31,774 nt of DNA from a virus (taxonomy: Duplodnaviria > Heunggongvirae > Uroviricota > Caudoviricetes), in IMG/VR virus record IMGVR_UViG_2579779052_000011. The stretch is one strand, 5' to 3'. Below, in pieces: positions 1,051 through 10,549 of this stretch (positions are counted from its first letter, which is position 1; each line of letters opens with the position of its first letter). Under the pieces are notes generated by a model that was not told where the DNA came from, did no database searches, and worked only from the letters and a program-made list of their open reading frames with translations. The position numbers and the translations under genes are program-made.

Positions 1051-1344
1051 TTAGCCAATCCTTTTCGCGGAGTGGTTGGACTCTGTTGACTCTGGCCCAA
1101 TGTGCGCGAGAGCCGGTGCGATTTGTCCTGCGTCCGGCGCGGTTTTATCTGTCATAAGCCATAGAGCATATTTTTGGAATGTGGGATGCATAGTGATTTT
1201 TAGCAAAGCTGTGCCACCGGGTTCAAAGTTTCCTCCTTCATATTTTTTAAGTGTGCTTAGCGGTAACTCTATGATTTCACAGAATTTTGATTGGCTTAGC
1301 CCTTCAGCCTCACGCAAGGCCTTAATCTTTTCGCTTAATTTCAT
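1051..1344 (-). CDS. C: Immunity repressor, P2 C-like (HTH)
   Basis: 97-aa ORF; N-terminal HTH and the C-terminal ...GQIAPALAH... motif resemble P2 C; divergent from cox. Confidence 0.85.
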   Translation of the reverse strand: MKLSEKIKALREAEGLSQSKFCEIIELPLSTLKKYEGGNFEPGGTALLKITMHPTFQKYALWLMTDKTAPDAGQIAPALAHIGPESTESNHSAKRIG

Positions 1345-3237: not shown

Positions 3238-3509
3238 GTATTCGTGTTGAAATTGGCGAACGTTATGTCGTTACCAGTGACAGCTTTCAGTTTATTCTCC
3301 ACGAGAAAAAGAGAGCGGAAAGCGGTAAAAACGCCGGTCAGGAATGGCTGGCGGTGGTTGGTTATTACCCGAAATTAGGCCAGCTCGTTTCCGGCCTGAT
3401 GCATCACGATATTCTGACCGGAAGCGCAAAATCTTTTGCTGATTTAAACGCGCAGGTTGAGCAACTCAGCAAGCGTTGTTCAGAGGCTTTTGGCTCATAT
3501 GGCCGTTAA
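3234..3509 (+). CDS. Hypothetical early protein (P2 orf83 position)
   Basis: 91-aa ORF; overlaps the start of A. Confidence 0.6.
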   Translation: MSIRVEIGERYVVTSDSFQFILHEKKRAESGKNAGQEWLAVVGYYPKLGQLVSGLMHHDILTGSAKSFADLNAQVEQLSKRCSEAFGSYGR

Positions 3510-5775
3510 AGCCTCCGGGCGTTTTGTCCCTCCGTCAGCATTTACCGCAGGCACCGGTAAGGCGTTTACCGGTGCTTATGCATGGAACGCGCCACGCGAG
3601 GCTGTCGGGCGCGAAAGACCTCTTACACGTGACGAGATGCGTCAGGTGCAAGGTGTTTTATCCACGATTAACCGCCTGCCTTACTTTTTGCGCTCGCTGT
3701 TTACTTCACGCTATGACTACATCCGGCGCAATAAAAGCCCGGTGCACGGGTTTTATTTCCTCACATCTACTTTTCAGCGTCGTTTATGGCCGCGCATTGA
3801 GCGTGTGAATCAGCGCCATGAAATGAACACCGACGCGTCGTTGCTGTTTCTGGCAGAGCGTGACCACTATGCGCGCCTGCCGGGAATGAATGACAAGGAG
3901 CTGAAAAAGTTTGCCGCCCGTATCTCATCGCAGCTTTTCATGATGTATGAGGAACTCTGCGATGCATGGGTTGATGCGCATGGTGAAAAAGAATCGCTGT
4001 TTACGGATGAGGCGCAGGCTCACCTGTATGGTCATGTTGCTGGCGCTGCACGTGCTTTCAATATTTCCCCGCTCTACTGGAAAAAATACCGTAAAGGACA
4101 GATGACCACGAGGCAGGCATATTCTGCCATTGCCCGCCTGTTTAACGATGAGTGGTGGACTCATCAGCTTAAAGGCCAGCGTATGCGCTGGCATGAGGCG
4201 TTACTGATAGCTGTCGGGGAGGTCAATAAAGACCGTTCTCCTTATGCCAGTAAACACGCCATTCGTGATGTGCGTGCGCGCCGCCAGGCAAATCTGGAAT
4301 TTCTTAAATCGTGTGACCTTGAAAACAGGGAAACCGGCGAGCGCATCGACCTTATCAGTAAGGTGATGGGCAGTATTTCTAATCCTGAAATTCGCCGGAT
4401 GGAGCTGATGAACACCATTGCCGGTATTGAGCGTTACGCCGCCGCAGAGGGTGATGTGGGGATGTTTATCACGCTGACCGCGCCGTCAAAGTATCACCCG
4501 ACACGTCAGGTCGGAAAAGGCGAAAGTAAAACCGTTCAGCTTAATCACGGCTGGAACGATGAGGCATTTAATCCAAAGGATGCGCAGCGTTATCTCTGCC
4601 GTATCTGGAGCCTGATGCGCACGGCATTCAAGGATAATGATTTACAGGTCTACGGTTTGCGAGTCGTCGAGCCACACCACGACGGAACGCCGCACTGGCA
4701 TATGATGCTTTTTTGTCATCCACGCCAGCGTAACCAGATTATCGAAATCATGCGTCGCTATGCGCTCAAAGAGGATGGCGACGAAAGAGGAGCCGCGCGA
4801 AACCGTTTTCAGGCAAAACACCTTAACCGGGGCGGTGCTGCGGGATATATCGCGAAATACATTTCAAAAAACATCGACGGCTATGCACTGGATGGTCAGC
4901 TCGATAACGACACCGGCAGGCCGCTGAAAGACACTGCAGCGGCTGTTACCGCATGGGCGTCAACGTGGCGCATTCCGCAATTTAAAACGGTTGGCCTGCC
5001 GACAATGGGGGCTTACCGTGAACTACGCAAATTGCCTCGCGGCGTCAGCATTGCTGATGAGTTTGACGAGCGCGTCGAGGCTGCACGCGCCGCCGCAGAC
5101 AGTGGTGATTTTGCGCTGTATATCAGCGCGCAGGGCGGGGCAAATGTCCCGCGCGATTGTCAGACTGTCAGGGTCGCCCGTAGTCTGTCGGATGACGTTA
5201 ACGAGTACGAGGAAGAAGTCGAGAGAGTGGTCGGCATTTACGCGCCGCATCTCGGCGCGCGTCATATTCATATCACCAGAACGACGGACTGGCGCATTGT
5301 GCCGAAAGTTCCGGTCGTTGAGCCTTTGACTTTAAAAAGCGGCATCGCCGCGCCTCGGAGTCCTGTCAATAACTGTGGAAAGCTCACCGGTGGTGATACT
5401 TCGTTACCGGCTCCCACACCTTCTGAGCACGCCGCAGCAGTGCTTAATCTGGTTGATGACGATGTTATCGAATGGAATGACCCGGAGGTCGTGAGGGCGC
5501 TCAGGGGCGCATTAAAACACGACCGGAGAACGCCAAACCGTCAGCAAAGAAACGGAAGCCCGTTAAAACCGCATGAAATTGCACCATCGGCCAGACTGAC
5601 CCGGTCGGAACGATTGCAAATTACCCGTATCCGCGTTGATCTCGCTCAGAACGGTATCAGGCCGCAACGATGGGAGCTTGAGGCGCTGGCGCGTGGCGCG
5701 ACCGTAAATTATGACGGGAAACCTTTCACTTATCAGGTCGCTGATGATTGGCCGGGGTTTTTGTTACCCATTTGA
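3499..5775 (+). CDS. A: Rolling-circle replication initiator/endonuclease, P2 gpA-like
   Basis: Large ORF; true start taken as the ATG at 3499 (MAVKASGRF...), which I recognise as the P2 A N-terminus; the listed ORF start at 3457 overlaps the upstream gene. Confidence 0.9.
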   Translation: MAVKASGRFVPPSAFTAGTGKAFTGAYAWNAPREAVGRERPLTRDEMRQVQGVLSTINRLPYFLRSLFTSRYDYIRRNKSPVHGFYFLTSTFQRRLWPRIERVNQRHEMNTDASLLFLAERDHYARLPGMNDKELKKFAARISSQLFMMYEELCDAWVDAHGEKESLFTDEAQAHLYGHVAGAARAFNISPLYWKKYRKGQMTTRQAYSAIARLFNDEWWTHQLKGQRMRWHEALLIAVGEVNKDRSPYASKHAIRDVRARRQANLEFLKSCDLENRETGERIDLISKVMGSISNPEIRRMELMNTIAGIERYAAAEGDVGMFITLTAPSKYHPTRQVGKGESKTVQLNHGWNDEAFNPKDAQRYLCRIWSLMRTAFKDNDLQVYGLRVVEPHHDGTPHWHMMLFCHPRQRNQIIEIMRRYALKEDGDERGAARNRFQAKHLNRGGAAGYIAKYISKNIDGYALDGQLDNDTGRPLKDTAAAVTAWASTWRIPQFKTVGLPTMGAYRELRKLPRGVSIADEFDERVEAARAAADSGDFALYISAQGGANVPRDCQTVRVARSLSDDVNEYEEEVERVVGIYAPHLGARHIHITRTTDWRIVPKVPVVEPLTLKSGIAAPRSPVNNCGKLTGGDTSLPAPTPSEHAAAVLNLVDDDVIEWNDPEVVRALRGALKHDRRTPNRQQRNGSPLKPHEIAPSARLTRSERLQITRIRVDLAQNGIRPQRWELEALARGATVNYDGKPFTYQVADDWPGFLLPI

Positions 5776-5960
5776 GTAAAAATACAGCGTGATTTTATAT
5801 GTCTTTGAATGGATTATGCGAAGCACCTCTAAGGTAGATGAGGAGCAATAGCGTGTTGAATCAGAAGGCTAAATTGTATTGAATCGTTAGCATGTAATTG
5901 AAGGCAGCTATTTGATTCGAGTCATAAAAGAGCATCTATTTCGGTTAATAAAACCATTGC

Positions 5961-6005
5961 GAGTGACTTTATGTCGAAGCATAATTCATCTCGAGCGAAG
6001 TCTTG
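5961..6005. repeat. Direct repeat copy 1 (GAGTGACT...GAGCGAAGTCTTGC)
   Basis: Shares the GAGTGACT start and the 14-bp GAGCGAAGTCTTGC end with 6246-6270, with about 20 extra bp in between. Confidence 0.6.
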
Positions 6006-6037
6006 CTAGTCTTTCATCGGATTGATGACGGGCGCAA

Positions 6038-6069
6038 AAAAACCACCCTGGCAGGTGGTTTTTTTGTTT
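6038..6069. terminator. Bidirectional rho-independent terminator after the early operon
   Basis: AAAAAAA-CCACCCTGGCAGGTGG-TTTTTTT: GC-rich hairpin flanked by an A-tract and a T-tract. Confidence 0.8.
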
Positions 6070-6077
6070 GAAGCATA

Positions 6078-6191
6078 CTAAAGAAAAATACTTACATGGA
6101 TATTACTGACGTTTACTGACAAACCACTCGGACTACCATATGGATAGCCAAAGAGGGCCAGAACGAGAATGCAGTAATAGCACTTCTTCAT
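6078..6191 (-). CDS. Small hydrophobic peptide (37 aa), function unknown
   Basis: ATG with a consensus GGAGG Shine-Dalgarno 5 nt upstream; hand-translated as MKKCYYCILVLALFGYPYGSPSGLSVNVSNIHVSIFL; ends just before the bidirectional terminator. Below the ORF-track size cutoff. Confidence 0.3.
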   Translation of the reverse strand: MKKCYYCILVLALFGYPYGSPSGLSVNVSNIHVSIFL

Positions 6192-6245
6192 ATCGCCTCC
6201 TGTAAGCAGAGGGCAATTTCCGCCGATATATGCGCTTCTAAGGCG

Positions 6246-6270
6246 GAGTGACTATTGAGCGAAGTCTTGC
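6246..6270. repeat. Direct repeat copy 2 (GAGTGACTATTGAGCGAAGTCTTGC)
   Basis: Shares the terminal 14-bp GAGCGAAGTCTTGC and the GAGTGACT start with 5961-6005. Confidence 0.6.
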
Positions 6271-6848
6271 CCTGAAATAATGCTCTGTTTAAACGCAAAG
6301 TGATCTGGCATATCACCGAACAGAGGACCTGAACAACACAACATATAGTATGTCGTTGTTTCTGGTTGCATTTTATGTTGTGTAATACTGGTTTTGCATC
6401 AAGGATGTTTGAGCTTTTTTTGATATAGCTCAAAGTAAAAAGCAGAGACTACGGATGATAAGGTCTTGAAAGCAATGTAAATTTTTTAAAGTTGTGAGTG
6501 GCTAGAAATGCACAGTTTCAATATGGCGGATTTAAACAAGTAATTAAAAATAGCGACATAAATTCCAATAAAATCATTAAGTTGCGTTTTCTGTGGAAAC
6601 TTCGGTGACTCTGAAATTTTCTTTTAGTGTCGCTGAGGTTTAACAACGCGCTGCGCAAGTAGTTAGTGTTTTTTTAACTCAATATTCTGATTTATAAGGT
6701 TTTTTATAAATCGTGGGCTGGTTGCGCGTATTCATCTCGTGTTATCAGCAAAGATAAGCTCTATATGCAGAACGGAATGCATATATGATGTCGAAAATGT
6801 TATGGGAAAACGTGGATTAGTGTTATAGTAATGGCTGAAAAACAGCCT

Positions 6849-6877
6849 TGACATAAAATAACAACTGTGATATGGCT
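6849..6877 (+). promoter_or_regulatory. Putative sigma70 promoter for the cargo peptidase gene
   Basis: TTGACA at 6849-6854, 17-bp spacer, TATGGC -10-like hexamer; TAGGAGG RBS at 6901-6907. Confidence 0.4.
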
Positions 6878-6912
6878 GTGCATACTTAACTTTTTTAACG
6901 TAGGAGGCAACC

Positions 6913-7398
6913 ATGAGCTATGCAGCTAAAAAACTGCTTGACCGCTATTGGGATCGCCGACTACCTGTCGATCCGTTTAAGCTTGCTAAAGCGTGGGGTG
7001 CTCGTGTTGAAGCACTTGAGGAATCGGCTTATAACAACGATGGGTTAAGCGGTCTGGCTGTCATCAAAAAGGGTGTCCATAGGATTTATTTTGATTCTAG
7101 TGAACATTCTAATCGTCAACGTTTTACTGTTGCACACGAGTTAGGTCATCATGTGCTGGGGCATACCCAGGACGGAGAGTACCATCGGGATAATGTCGGG
7201 AATTATTCAACAGGTGCTCGTGATTACCGTGAGGTTGAAGCAAACAAGTTTGCTGCTGAGTTGTTAATGCCTGAGTCTGCTATACGTCAATTGGTATCCA
7301 GAGAAGGTATTGATAGCACTTTGAGATTAGCAAGCATCTTTAATGTATCAGAAGCCGCTATGCATTGGCGCTTAAAGAGCTTAGGAATGGCTTATTAA
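6913..7398 (+). CDS. ImmA/IrrE-family (DUF955) zinc metallopeptidase
   Basis: 161-aa ORF with HEXXH (HELGHH) and the downstream family motif EANKFAAELLMPE; strong RBS; AT-rich. Confidence 0.8.
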   Translation: MSYAAKKLLDRYWDRRLPVDPFKLAKAWGARVEALEESAYNNDGLSGLAVIKKGVHRIYFDSSEHSNRQRFTVAHELGHHVLGHTQDGEYHRDNVGNYSTGARDYREVEANKFAAELLMPESAIRQLVSREGIDSTLRLASIFNVSEAAMHWRLKSLGMAY

Positions 7399-7426
7399 TT
7401 AGCCTTTAACTTTTAACCTGTTTAAA

Positions 7427-7465
7427 ATCACCTTTACGTTTGTACATGTAAGGGTGATTTTTTTA
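7427..7465 (+). terminator. Rho-independent terminator or attenuator after the peptidase gene
   Basis: 10-bp stem (AUCACCUUUA / UAAGGGUGAU, one G-U pair) followed by a run of 7 T; ends at the start codon of the next ORF. Confidence 0.6.
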
Positions 7466-8064
7466 TGGCTGATATTGATTTATCTGGACAGTCCCCAGAG
7501 CAAGGAACCACTCCTAAGGGCGATTTAGATCCTGATATCCTTATAAGGCGAGATAGACGGGATGGTATAGAGCGTAGAAGCATGCGATTAGTGCTCTCTG
7601 CCGTTGTGCTTTGTTTTGCTTGTACATTTCTATGGCAGGGGCTTAACTTTGCTTTGGCTGTTGGAAATGGCTTGCTGGAAGCGAAAAGCAGTATTGCCGC
7701 AGCGATAACACAAAAAGTAGATACACAAACTTGTGTTTCAGCAGAAAAATGTTCTGCTTTATCTTCGGATCCGAAGATGGCTGATGAGAGGATAACACCA
7801 TCTTCAGACACTAATAAAGTTAGAAAATCTATTTCTGGTTTATCCACCGATTGGTTATCGGCCAGTTCTCTAATAGCTATTGTTGCATTCATCCTTGGTG
7901 TGGGTTTAACTTTGCTTTTGACTCTTCTTAAATCAGCATTTCAACACCCGACAGATAAAGACTTTAGAACAAAGTCGACATCTAATACTATTGAGTTGGC
8001 CACGCCAATCAGTGAATTAATAATTGGTGTTCTGAATATAATTAAAGACAAACTATCTAAGTAA
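7465..8064 (+). CDS. Hypothetical membrane protein with two predicted TM helices
   Basis: 199-aa ORF; hydrophobic segments LVLSAVVLCFACTFLW and LIAIVAFILGVGLTLLLTLL; no recognisable RBS; followed by a terminator. Confidence 0.45.
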   Translation: MADIDLSGQSPEQGTTPKGDLDPDILIRRDRRDGIERRSMRLVLSAVVLCFACTFLWQGLNFALAVGNGLLEAKSSIAAAITQKVDTQTCVSAEKCSALSSDPKMADERITPSSDTNKVRKSISGLSTDWLSASSLIAIVAFILGVGLTLLLTLLKSAFQHPTDKDFRTKSTSNTIELATPISELIIGVLNIIKDKLSK

Positions 8065-8106
8065 AGCATTAGTTGTGATTTTTTATTGGTTTTAGTGATA
8101 ATACAT

Positions 8107-8139
8107 CTCCAGTACTTATTGTTACTGGAGAGTATTTTT
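8107..8139 (+). terminator. Rho-independent terminator between convergent cargo genes
   Basis: Perfect 8-bp stem CTCCAGTA...TACTGGAG followed by AGTATTTTTA. Confidence 0.6.
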
Positions 8140-8146
8140 AGTCGTT

Positions 8147-9088
8147 TTATATTTTTAATGTTAGTGAATGATATTCACGAGAGTTCACGTTCGATGTGAT
8201 GTAATCGGGGGCGTTAACACCAAGAATCGCAACGAGTAATCGGCAAATTAAAGCCTGCATTTGTTGTAATATGTCATCTCCATATTGATAATTGTTAATA
8301 GTGGTAAAGCCAAGTGGTTGACCATGAAACATAGCTTCATGAAAGTTTTCATTGCGGATGTTTGTAATGTTTTTTTTGCCTGTAACCCATGATGGTCGTG
8401 GTATTCCATAAGTTTTGCAGATCCACTTCAAGCGCCTGGAGTGATTTAGAGTCTTTTCTGTACACTTGTTCTTTTCTGCCCATGTTAAAGCAAAGCAACT
8501 ATCCAGTGCCATATAAAGATACTGGAATTTTTCGAAGCTAAGGTATTGTGGGTTTTGGGATAAAAATAGTGCATGCACTATTGCTGCTATATTTATTGGT
8601 GCGTGTTTGGTTTTTGTCTCGCTAGACATGTATTTGAGTGCTAATTCTATAACCTCTTTTTCAGAGCACTTGACCAGAATAAAGTCAGTTAATTTGCTAG
8701 GTTTTATTGGGGTTGCGTCTAAAAAACCGGCATCAGTAGTTGTTAATCTTATCCCTTTGAAAAAAGACAGACACCACACAGCAAAATTGAGAGTTTCTAG
8801 TGAAGATGTATTTTTTAATTTTAGTGAGTGTGTTTTGGGTAAGCCAAATACTCGTTGGCTAAAAGGCATTGTGGATATGCCTCCATTGAGGTTATATACT
8901 TCTTGGTTTCCTGGGTATATCCAACCGTTAATAACATTTCTGTGATTGTTTATAAGATTTGTTTTTTCCGCTAGACCGGGTAAAGTAAGTAAAGAAAAAT
9001 CATCAGTTTCAACGTTAACTTCTACTGGATAGTATCCAAACTCAGCTTCAATATCATTGGATTGCTGTTCGTCAACTTTACCTTGCAT
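8147..9088 (-). CDS. Hypothetical 313-aa protein in the old/tin hotspot; possible HEPN-like Rx4H motif; candidate defence effector
   Basis: AT-rich ORF with GGAG RBS 8 nt upstream; occupies the cos-proximal slot where P2 has old; C-terminal IRNENFHEAMFHG motif. Confidence 0.6.
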   Translation of the reverse strand: MQGKVDEQQSNDIEAEFGYYPVEVNVETDDFSLLTLPGLAEKTNLINNHRNVINGWIYPGNQEVYNLNGGISTMPFSQRVFGLPKTHSLKLKNTSSLETLNFAVWCLSFFKGIRLTTTDAGFLDATPIKPSKLTDFILVKCSEKEVIELALKYMSSETKTKHAPINIAAIVHALFLSQNPQYLSFEKFQYLYMALDSCFALTWAEKNKCTEKTLNHSRRLKWICKTYGIPRPSWVTGKKNITNIRNENFHEAMFHGQPLGFTTINNYQYGDDILQQMQALICRLLVAILGVNAPDYITSNVNSREYHSLTLKI

Positions 9089-9200
9089 ACATTGCTCCGG
9101 TCAAAAATAGGCTCGATAATTCTCGTAAGCCTATCATGTTCGCAAAGTATCCATACCTGTGGATTTTGTAAATTTAAGTTGATTTGTCATTAAATAAGCC

Positions 9201-9212
9201 GTTGCATGCAAC
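9201..9212. repeat. Perfect 12-bp palindrome GTTGCATGCAAC upstream of the 313-aa gene
   Basis: Direct reading; lies in the promoter region of the minus-strand cargo gene. Confidence 0.5.
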
Positions 9213-9326
9213 AAGTGAATGTTTTTGCATGCGTCGGGGATGTCCGTTCAGGCTGCGTGCGGTCAGGACTGGTGCGGATCCATAGTATCTATGCAACTGC
9301 ATTAAAACTGCCCCATGAAGCGGGCG

Positions 9327-9345
9327 GGCGAGGCGGGGAAAGCAC
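9327..9345. other. cos: cos site (19-nt cohesive end GGCGAGGCGGGGAAAGCAC)
   Basis: Exact match to the P2 cohesive-end sequence as I recall it; located immediately upstream of Q as in P2. Confidence 0.8.
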
Positions 9346-9488
9346 TGCGCGCTGGCGGTGGTGCTGATTTTATTTTTTCAGCGTCTGAGCGCGTCTTGAT
9401 GGCGTTTAGATTGTGCGCCGGGGCGTTGGTGTGTCTGCGGGGTATTTTGTGCGGTGGTGAGCGTGTGAGGGCGTGATGACGGGGTGTA

Positions 9489-9512
9489 AAAAAGCCGCCC
9501 GCAGGCGGCGAT
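9489..9512 (-). terminator. Terminator downstream of Q (minus strand)
   Basis: GCCGCC-CGCA-GGCGGC hairpin followed by a T6 run on the minus strand, just past the Q stop. Confidence 0.6.
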
Positions 9513-9514
9513 GT

Positions 9515-10549
9515 TCAGCCGTTGTCAGTGTCCAGTGAGTAGTTTTTAAAGCGGATGACCTCCTGGCCGAGCCAGCCGTTTATTTCCCGAATCCTGTCCT
9601 GTAACGGGATAAGTTCATTGCGGACAAAGACCTTTGCCACTTTCTCAATATCACCCAGCGACCCGACGTTCTCCGGCTTGCCGCCCATCAACTGAAAGGG
9701 GATGCGGTGCGCGTCCAGCAGGTCAGCGGCGCTGGCTTTTTTGATATTAAAAAAATCGTCCTTCGTTGCCACTTCACTGAGCGGGATAATTTTAATACCG
9801 TCGGCTTTCCCCTGCGGGGCATAGAGAAACAGATTTTTAAAGTTGTTGCGGCCTTTCGACTTGACCATGTTTTCGCGAAGCATTTCGATATCGTTGCGAT
9901 CCTGCACGGCATCAGTGACGTACATGATGTATCCGGCATGTGCGCCATTTTCGTAATACTTGCGGCGGAACAGCGTGGCCGACTCATTCAGCCAGGCAGA
10001 GTTAAGGGCGCTGAGATATTCCGGCAGGCCGTACAGCTCCTGATTAATATCCGGCTCCAGCAGGTGAAACACGGAGCCGGGCGCGAAGGCTGTCGGCTCG
10101 TTGAAGGACGGCGCCCACCAGTAAACATCCTCTTCCACACCACGGCGGGGATATTTTGCCGGTGAGGTTTCCAGTCTGATGACCTTACCGGTGGTGCTGT
10201 AACGCTTTTCCAGAAACGCATTACCGAACACCAGAAAATCCAGCACAAAGCGGCTGAAATCCTGCTGGGAAAGCCACGGATGCGGGATAAATGTTGAGGC
10301 CAGAATATTACGTTTGACGTAAATCGGTGAGCTGTGATGCACGGCAGCACGCAGGCTTTTTGCCAGACCGGTAAAGCTGACCGGTGGTTCATACCATCTG
10401 CCGTTACTGATGCACTCGACGTAATCCAGAATGTCACGGCGGTCGAGTACCGGTACCGGCTCGCCAAAGGTGAATGCCTCCATTTTCGGGGTGCTGGCGG
10501 TCATTTTTTTTGCCGCAGGTTGCGGTGTTTTCCCTTTTTTCTTGCTCAT
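9515..10549 (-). CDS. Q: Portal protein, P2 gpQ-like
   Basis: 344-aa ORF, same length as P2 Q; N-terminal lysine-rich region; adjacent to cos. Confidence 0.9.
   Translation of the reverse strand: MSKKKGKTPQPAAKKMTASTPKMEAFTFGEPVPVLDRRDILDYVECISNGRWYEPPVSFTGLAKSLRAAVHHSSPIYVKRNILASTFIPHPWLSQQDFSRFVLDFLVFGNAFLEKRYSTTGKVIRLETSPAKYPRRGVEEDVYWWAPSFNEPTAFAPGSVFHLLEPDINQELYGLPEYLSALNSAWLNESATLFRRKYYENGAHAGYIMYVTDAVQDRNDIEMLRENMVKSKGRNNFKNLFLYAPQGKADGIKIIPLSEVATKDDFFNIKKASAADLLDAHRIPFQLMGGKPENVGSLGDIEKVAKVFVRNELIPLQDRIREINGWLGQEVIRFKNYSLDTDNG

Follow-up and report, generated by a model that had tools for sequence, protein, structure and literature searches.

The ImmA/IrrE-type metallopeptidase gene described here is the first of two genes in a cassette (~6794–8131) that is probably a self-promoted Rosmer-type TA or phage-defense moron, in which a membrane protein would be the effector and an HTH-less protease would control it directly. 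The cassette sits in a 31,774-nucleotide stretch of DNA (hereafter the window) that is a complete P2-like prophage, as the first-pass annotation had assumed. We infer the toxicity, neutralization, cleavage target, and defense phenotype of the cassette from a 38%-identical actinophage system.

The location of the cassette is the P2 gpA/gpQ (A/Q) defense hotspot. G+C content across this A-to-Q stretch (5776–9500) is 33–44%, against 52–59% in the flanking phage genes. The cos-proximal gpA/gpQ hotspot is a reservoir of anti-phage systems, and its cargo includes non-defense genes too (Rousset et al. 2022, PMC9122126). Table S5 of that study lists the exact protein, WP_000119270, in arrangements that include “Peptidase_M78 + hypothetical” and “Peptidase_M78 + hypothetical + hypothetical”, and WP_000119270 is absent from its table of evaluated systems. 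The cassette is mentioned in neither Vassallo 2022 nor Rousset 2021. The cassette is present in this hotspot in 50 of 5426 complete E. coli genomes (~1%), each time chromosomal and each time as the full gene pair. Features of the window that bear on this analysis are collected in Table 1.

Table 1 Features of the window, with strand and the evidence or remark attached to each.
Feature	Position	Strand	Evidence or remark
Integrase	1–1011	−	P2-like prophage gene
C repressor	1051–1344		HTH_3 protein (Pfam)
Cox	1466–1753		Matches Phage_Cox, E=1.2e-23
Replication protein A	3457–5775
37-aa hydrophobic ORF (MKKCYYCILVLALFG...)	6078–6191	−	AGGAGG Shine-Dalgarno; 100%-conserved stretch
Conserved block, putative promoter	6794–6876	+	Near-invariant in 7 P2-hotspot cassettes
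Putative −35, TTGACA	6848–6853	+	17-nt spacer to −10
Putative extended −10, TGaTATGGC	6868–6876	+
Shine-Dalgarno, AGGAGG	6902–6907	+	5 nt before protease ATG; invariant across the 7-cassette alignment
ImmA/IrrE-type (Peptidase_M78) zinc metallopeptidase, RmrA-like, 161 aa	6913–7398	+	ORF, Pfam, conservation, AF2/Foldseek
Stem-loop with U-run, intrinsic terminator/attenuator-like	7424–7464	+	Abuts membrane-gene ATG
Predicted inner-membrane effector/toxin, RmrT-like partner, 199 aa	7465–8064	+	Hydropathy, alignment, AF2 helical-hairpin model
Bidirectional terminator-like hairpin	8106–8131	.	Ends the cassette and the convergent 313-aa gene
Convergent 313-aa ORF	8147–9088	−	phrog_5937, function unknown
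Portal Q	9515–10549	−	Late genes beyond

The protease ORF begins with ATG and runs to a stop codon. Its claimed signature, HEXXH plus EANKFAAELLMPE, is present, with HELGH at residues 75–79 and EANKFAAELLMPE at residues 107–119, and a profile search with Pfam PF06114 (Peptidase_M78) was positive above the gathering score (E=3.8e-21, 75.6 bits, cutoff 22). The HEXXH residues and the downstream Glu zinc ligand (H75, E76, H79, and E107) show no variation among 18 homologs. The protein is thus a member of the Peptidase_M78 family with an intact active site, for which proteolysis is predicted. Its AlphaFold2 model has a mean pLDDT of 86, and the best Foldseek matches were PprI/IrrE (8sln) and CapP (7t5t), with 3dti found as well (E ~3e-6 to 4e-6, TM-score ~0.6, or 0.38–0.43 when normalized to the target). 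The protein consists of the peptidase domain alone, with no HTH, no GAF domain, and zero cysteines. Among P2-hotspot alleles its dN/dS is ~0.05, indicating purifying selection, a rough value given that dS is saturated. Screening with PADLOC returned CapP as the best match (1e-30), with the profile covered only at positions 8–153 of 242, together with 14 RmrA models that match the peptidase region (best E=6e-17) and a weak match to PD-Lambda-2_B (E=1.3e-6).

Matches to HTH families were absent among all ORFs of at least 36 aa between gene A and the portal gene (Pfam), which bears out the report of the first-pass annotation that no HTH gene flanks the protease. A search for a hidden HTH gene over the 1.1 kb that precedes the protease was negative as well. 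An 81-aa minus-strand ORF upstream of the protease was considered and set aside as probably non-coding; its substitutions show no third-position bias.

The description of the protease as stand-alone did not survive, since a two-TM membrane gene is its constant downstream partner, starting 66 nt after it on the same strand. A partner homolog was found downstream of the protease in every close locus, spanning E. coli genomes, phage MET_P1_103_31, P2DC1, and IMG/VR contigs, and hmmsearch detected the partner throughout loci L001–L030 with the sole exception of one locus truncated at the protease. At 45–51% protease identity the partner still lies directly downstream, in three unrelated prophage types. 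The cassette is carried between mor and the endolysin gene of an Aeromonas Mu-like prophage, just downstream of an S24 repressor gene in a Pseudomonas aeruginosa lambdoid prophage, and by a Klebsiella P2/HP1-like prophage, while in the Peduoviridae phages Burkholderia Carl1 and Pseudoalteromonas ACA1 the pair opens the genome next to cos. Hosts of the clade are Escherichia, Klebsiella, Aeromonas, Pseudomonas, Vibrio, Acinetobacter, Serratia, Burkholderia, and Pseudoalteromonas. The P. aeruginosa cassette (L008–L011, 3007–4934) follows directly on a Peptidase_S24 (CI/LexA-like) repressor gene on the same strand, a position we take to be equivalent to that of rexAB beside cI in lambda. This rexAB-like position suggests expression in the lysogen.

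At E<=1e-5, homologs number 338 proteins among 383 candidates. We surveyed the neighborhoods of 80 loci on one-genome-per-species contigs, scoring each protease against a clade profile. For proteases at 148 bits or above, a two-TM ORF of 119–214 aa abuts or overlaps the protease stop codon in 12 of 14 loci. In most lower-scoring relatives the neighbor is instead a same-strand ORF on the upstream side, and 30 of the 33 scanned matched the XRE family HTH_3 (a Pfam aggregate count over 40 sequences). The membrane protein therefore takes, in this clade, the place held by the HTH repressor in canonical ImmA modules. A reciprocal check started from partner homologs of Vibrio harveyi, Acinetobacter baumannii, and Serratia nevei, and a Peptidase_M78 gene of 161–164 aa lay 30–75 nt upstream in all three. 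The most distant loci have mixed contexts, housekeeping flanks among them. Six loci (L065, L066, L067, L070, L084, and L086) show yet another arrangement, an upstream XRE HTH gene, next a short, distant M78 protease, and last a 450–470-aa ORF that has no TM segment. In Serratia nevei (L135/L136, 5463–6660), a 223-aa gene followed by a 371-aa gene matching HTH_3 and Peptidase_M78 lies ~2.5 kb downstream of the cassette. This pair has the canonical RosmerTA-like architecture, and the islet therefore contains two Rosmer-type modules.

Hydropathy analysis of the partner revealed two strong hydrophobic segments, TM1 at residues ~40–64 and TM2 at ~127–156. From N- to C-terminus the protein consists of a tail with D-L-S-G (residues 5–8) and a basic patch, TM1, a loop, TM2, and an amphipathic helix. 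In the alignment, the loop between the TM segments is variable and holds two conserved Cys residues, and TM2 contains an invariant GVGLTL. Because a basic juxtamembrane patch precedes TM1 and Lys/Arg residues follow TM2, the sequence argues for a topology with both termini inside. The protein belongs to phrog_8096, a family of unknown function in PHROGs, and it has no match in Pfam, NCBIfam, or PADLOC. Its structural model is weak (pLDDT 62), and a Foldseek search of that model against viral structures returned nothing. Partner dN/dS is 0.12 overall, 0.02 in TM2, and 0.25 in the inter-TM loop, with dS saturated; by region, both genes are under purifying selection throughout, and the saturated dS would mask any positive selection acting on the loop. 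An exhaustive profile search for the partner recovered 55 clusters among 1.84 billion representatives, which makes this a small family by that measure. A 152-aa ORF (7434–7892, minus strand) runs antisense to the membrane-protein gene and is most likely spurious, because the plus frame is conserved across genera and under purifying selection.

A short motif recurs in the N-terminal tails of the partners, including tails that cannot be aligned in any other part. D-[LF]-[SAG], usually in the form D-L-S-x-G, occurs near the N-terminus of 19 of 24 clade partners and in none of nine partners of more distant proteases, Kita gp33 included. As a background, the first 70 residues of ORFs contain an exact DLS in 4% of cases and the looser pattern in 10%. 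We take this motif as the best candidate for a site at which the protease would contact or cleave its partner.

The arrangement of expression signals points to unequal production of the two proteins. Seven P2-hotspot alleles are divergent upstream of ~6794 and near-invariant from there on, and their −10 elements take the form TGnTA(T/A)GGC. A second possible extended −10, TGtTATAGT, occurs further upstream in the block. The block was not listed by a strict consensus promoter scan, which missed it because the −10 ends in C. A LexA box was looked for by eye in the promoter and rejected, as the candidate CTGT-N8-TGTG departs from consensus. Between the two genes, the hairpin has a 16-bp stem whose 3′ arm holds AAGGGUGA, the sole SD-like sequence of the membrane gene. 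The intergenic fold (7396–7480) has a predicted energy of −25.1 kcal/mol (z = −5.5), and a hairpin in the matching position of P2DC1 (z = −5.3) differs in its stem sequence. Cassettes from Aeromonas and Klebsiella also have a GC-rich stem and a U-run against the ATG, with weak z values for the whole segment (−2.2 and −0.7), and the Pseudomonas cassette has no hairpin, its genes being 13 nt apart. A scan of 5700–9600 with Rfam gave nothing above any gathering score. This layout would provide abundant protease and scarce membrane protein, as expected if the second product is dangerous.

Evidence for a Rosmer-type assignment comes from Gordonia phage Kita. Searching phage genomes in translation, we found Kita gp32 to be 38–39% identical to the window protease over residues 4–160 (pairwise E=2e-29). 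Kita gp32 and gp33 are RmrA_D25 and RmrT_D5, an experimentally validated RosmerTA pair (Ernits et al. 2023, PMC10440598; accessions in the supplement). In that study the C-terminal region of RmrT_D5 was membrane-embedded and its expression rapidly depolarized and permeabilized E. coli; the protease antitoxin neutralized the toxin only partly, with no reliable model of a complex, and the RmrTA pair defended E. coli against phages Bas54 and Bas59 (PMC10440598). Like the window cassette, the Kita system is phage-borne, with a short HTH-less protease first and a small two-TM protein next on the same strand. Kita gp33 has two C-terminal TM helices, and the PADLOC hits of gp32 follow those of the window protease, with CapP first and then RmrA peptidase regions. 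The first-pass annotation had raised the possibility of a defense-system protease, and this full-length homology to the RmrA of Kita, along with the hotspot context, supports the assignment, while defense as such would be an extrapolation from Kita.

There are also clear differences from Kita. The window partner is 199 aa and Kita gp33 is 119 aa, and gp33 lacks the ~60-aa loop with its two Cys, the C-terminal amphipathic helix, and D-L-S-x-G. The Kita genes overlap, whereas those of the window are separated by a terminator hairpin. A profile–profile comparison (hhalign) of the window partner with RmrT_D5 and Kita-type toxins gave a probability of 3%, with no detectable homology. The resemblance to Kita lies in the protease and the architecture, not in the effector.

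Canonical RosmerTA (Millman et al. 2022, bioRxiv 10.1101/2022.05.11.491447) likewise pairs a Zn-peptidase gene with a neighbor whose function is unknown, in mobile or defense contexts. The RmrA models of PADLOC span 357–400 positions, however, and the window protease covers only the peptidase part (~146–292), so that ~145 N-terminal model positions have no counterpart. Matches to these models begin at about position 141–215, and a protein of 161 aa has no room for an N-terminal HTH. In D25-type RmrA proteins the N-terminal region often contains an HTH (PMC10440598). No PADLOC model matches either Kita RmrT_D5 or the 199-aa protein, and because the latter matches none, the PADLOC models give no partner support for the RosmerTA call.

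Other M78 systems are more distant in organization. The M78 fold and HEXXH...E active site are common to the window protease and to the peptidases of ImmA–ImmR, IrrE–DdrO, and CapP–CapH, but the neighbor in the window is a membrane protein and there is no adjacent HTH substrate gene. CapP–CapH and IrrE–DdrO proteases also combine three domains (peptidase, HTH, and GAF) with an interdomain groove for ssDNA, whereas the window protease is a peptidase only, and many CapP proteins have a cysteine-switch loop while the window protease is cysteine-free. With neither a GAF domain nor a cysteine, it cannot as such use the CapP mechanism of ssDNA groove and cysteine switch. PD-lambda-2, an E. coli prophage defense system of three genes (HigB-like, Xre-peptidase fusion, and P4-antitoxin-like; Vassallo et al. 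2022, PMC9519451), is similarly prophage-borne with an M78 peptidase domain but has no membrane partner.

We hypothesize that the two-TM protein is a membrane-active effector or toxin and that the HTH-less M78 protease is its cognate neutralizer or regulator, acting on the cytoplasmic N-terminal tail of the partner (D-L-S-x-G) and not on a DNA-binding repressor. The strong promoter and SD would make the protease plentiful, and the intergenic terminator, which may also sequester the SD of the membrane gene, would keep the membrane protein scarce. On infection by a second phage this balance would be lost, and the membrane protein would be free to depolarize the cell. Depolarization would then lead to abortive infection or exclusion, protecting the lysogen population. 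The partner is annotated everywhere as hypothetical, and a Rosmer assignment would give it a testable function and add a new effector family to defense-detection tools. The cassette also bears on a question about Rosmer systems, namely whether the toxin is the direct target of the protease, with D-L-S-x-G as a possible handle.

A tentative and rather doubtful extension is that the M78 protease of this clade exchanged an ancestral HTH-repressor substrate for a membrane protein, and that cutting the D-L-S-x-G tail gates a pore post-translationally with no transcriptional step. If true, the pair would be a miniature gasdermin-like or anti-gasdermin-like prophage switch across Proteobacteria.

The protease could instead be a sensor and activator, clipping an inhibitory N-terminal tail at or near D-L-S-x-G on a phage cue to yield a pore-forming form, as in a gasdermin-like system and not a classical TA. 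Strict conservation of the catalytic residues implies selection on proteolysis itself and not just on binding, and the N-terminal tail presents its conserved short linear motif on what is predicted to be the cytoplasmic side. In the related CapP and IrrE, a signal activates the protease (bioRxiv 10.64898/2026.05.16.725639), but the window protease has neither the GAF domain nor the interdomain groove with which they bind ssDNA, and it has no cysteine for a cysteine switch. The membrane gene appears to be tightly throttled in both transcription and translation, which suits an intrinsically toxic product more than an inert precursor, and the Kita homolog acted as an antitoxin (PMC10440598). On balance we regard activation by cleavage as unlikely.

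Even less probable, in our estimation, is that the cassette has no role in defense and is a superinfection-exclusion or membrane-remodeling moron whose protease matures or turns over the partner, or a plain addiction module that stabilizes the prophage. Small inner-membrane prophage proteins often function in exclusion, the inter-TM loop is the most variable part of the partner, as the dN/dS contrast with TM2 shows, and the hotspot is also home to non-defense cargo (PMC9122126). Against this stand the homology to a system with a measured defense phenotype (PMC10440598), the proximity of the Serratia copy to another Rosmer-like gene, and the failure to detect positive selection in the loop, where dS is saturated.

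The suggestion that the protease acts in trans on the C repressor can be generalized to an anti-repressor that cleaves P2 C or the repressors of co-resident prophages and so brings about induction, with the membrane protein as sensor or anchor. ImmA, IrrE, and CapP relatives do cleave XRE-type repressors, the C protein of the window belongs to HTH_3, and the homolog in Pseudoalteromonas phage ACA1 is annotated “antirepressor”, by HHpred only. At least 16 phage records, however, share the C–cox region of the window at ≥99% identity (P2 str. T22, P24B2, L-413C, R18C, and P2_AC1 are examples), and of these only MET_P1_103_31 has the cassette. P2DC1 conversely pairs the cassette with a Wphi-type immunity region (70% identical), and the Mu-like and lambdoid prophages that carry it have unrelated repressors. 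The reading is disfavored because cassette and C–cox immunity type assort independently and a protease dedicated to one repressor is not expected to spread in this way; with clade members lacking the HTH neighbor that outgroup relatives have, and a constitutive-looking promoter that would destabilize lysogeny, we consider it very improbable. This corrects the tempting but unsupported idea of the protease as a new induction route for non-inducible P2 phages.

Other elements of the A-to-Q stretch appear to be separate from the cassette. The convergent 313-aa gene was considered as a third component and rejected, as it is absent from P2DC1 and is found with no protease cassette in six other P2-like phage records, among them P2-EC67, vB_YpM_46, VB-YPM-4, 613R3, and 720R8. 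It is independent hotspot cargo. Its product has no match in Pfam, PADLOC, NCBIfam, or PDB and contains an R-N-E-N-F-H stretch, which we take to fit the HEPN Rx4H pattern.

Just after gene A, a segment of ~600 bp (5896–6493) is 90–100% identical between the window and P2DC1, and its conservation exceeds that of the adjoining 3′ end of the A gene (83%) and that of the sequence immediately preceding the protease. No credible long ORF is present in this segment. Because the segment also occurs in the P2-like hotspot of E. coli FDAARGOS_1250 (86% over 747 bp), with no annotated gene and no protease cassette, we regard it as a separate module. Within it, 97 bp (6393–6489) are ~85% identical to the nrdD–treC intergenic region, which is found once in each of 5426 E. 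coli genomes. These 97 bp contain TTGAT-N4-CTCAA, which resembles an FNR site; they lie upstream of nrdD in K-12, so that their direction in the window would be leftward (minus strand). The 37-aa hydrophobic ORF, located downstream of this nrdD-like segment, appears as a hypothetical protein in the annotation of phage MET_P1_103_31, and a strong bidirectional terminator (~6034–6067) follows it. This ORF could be a small membrane peptide gene.
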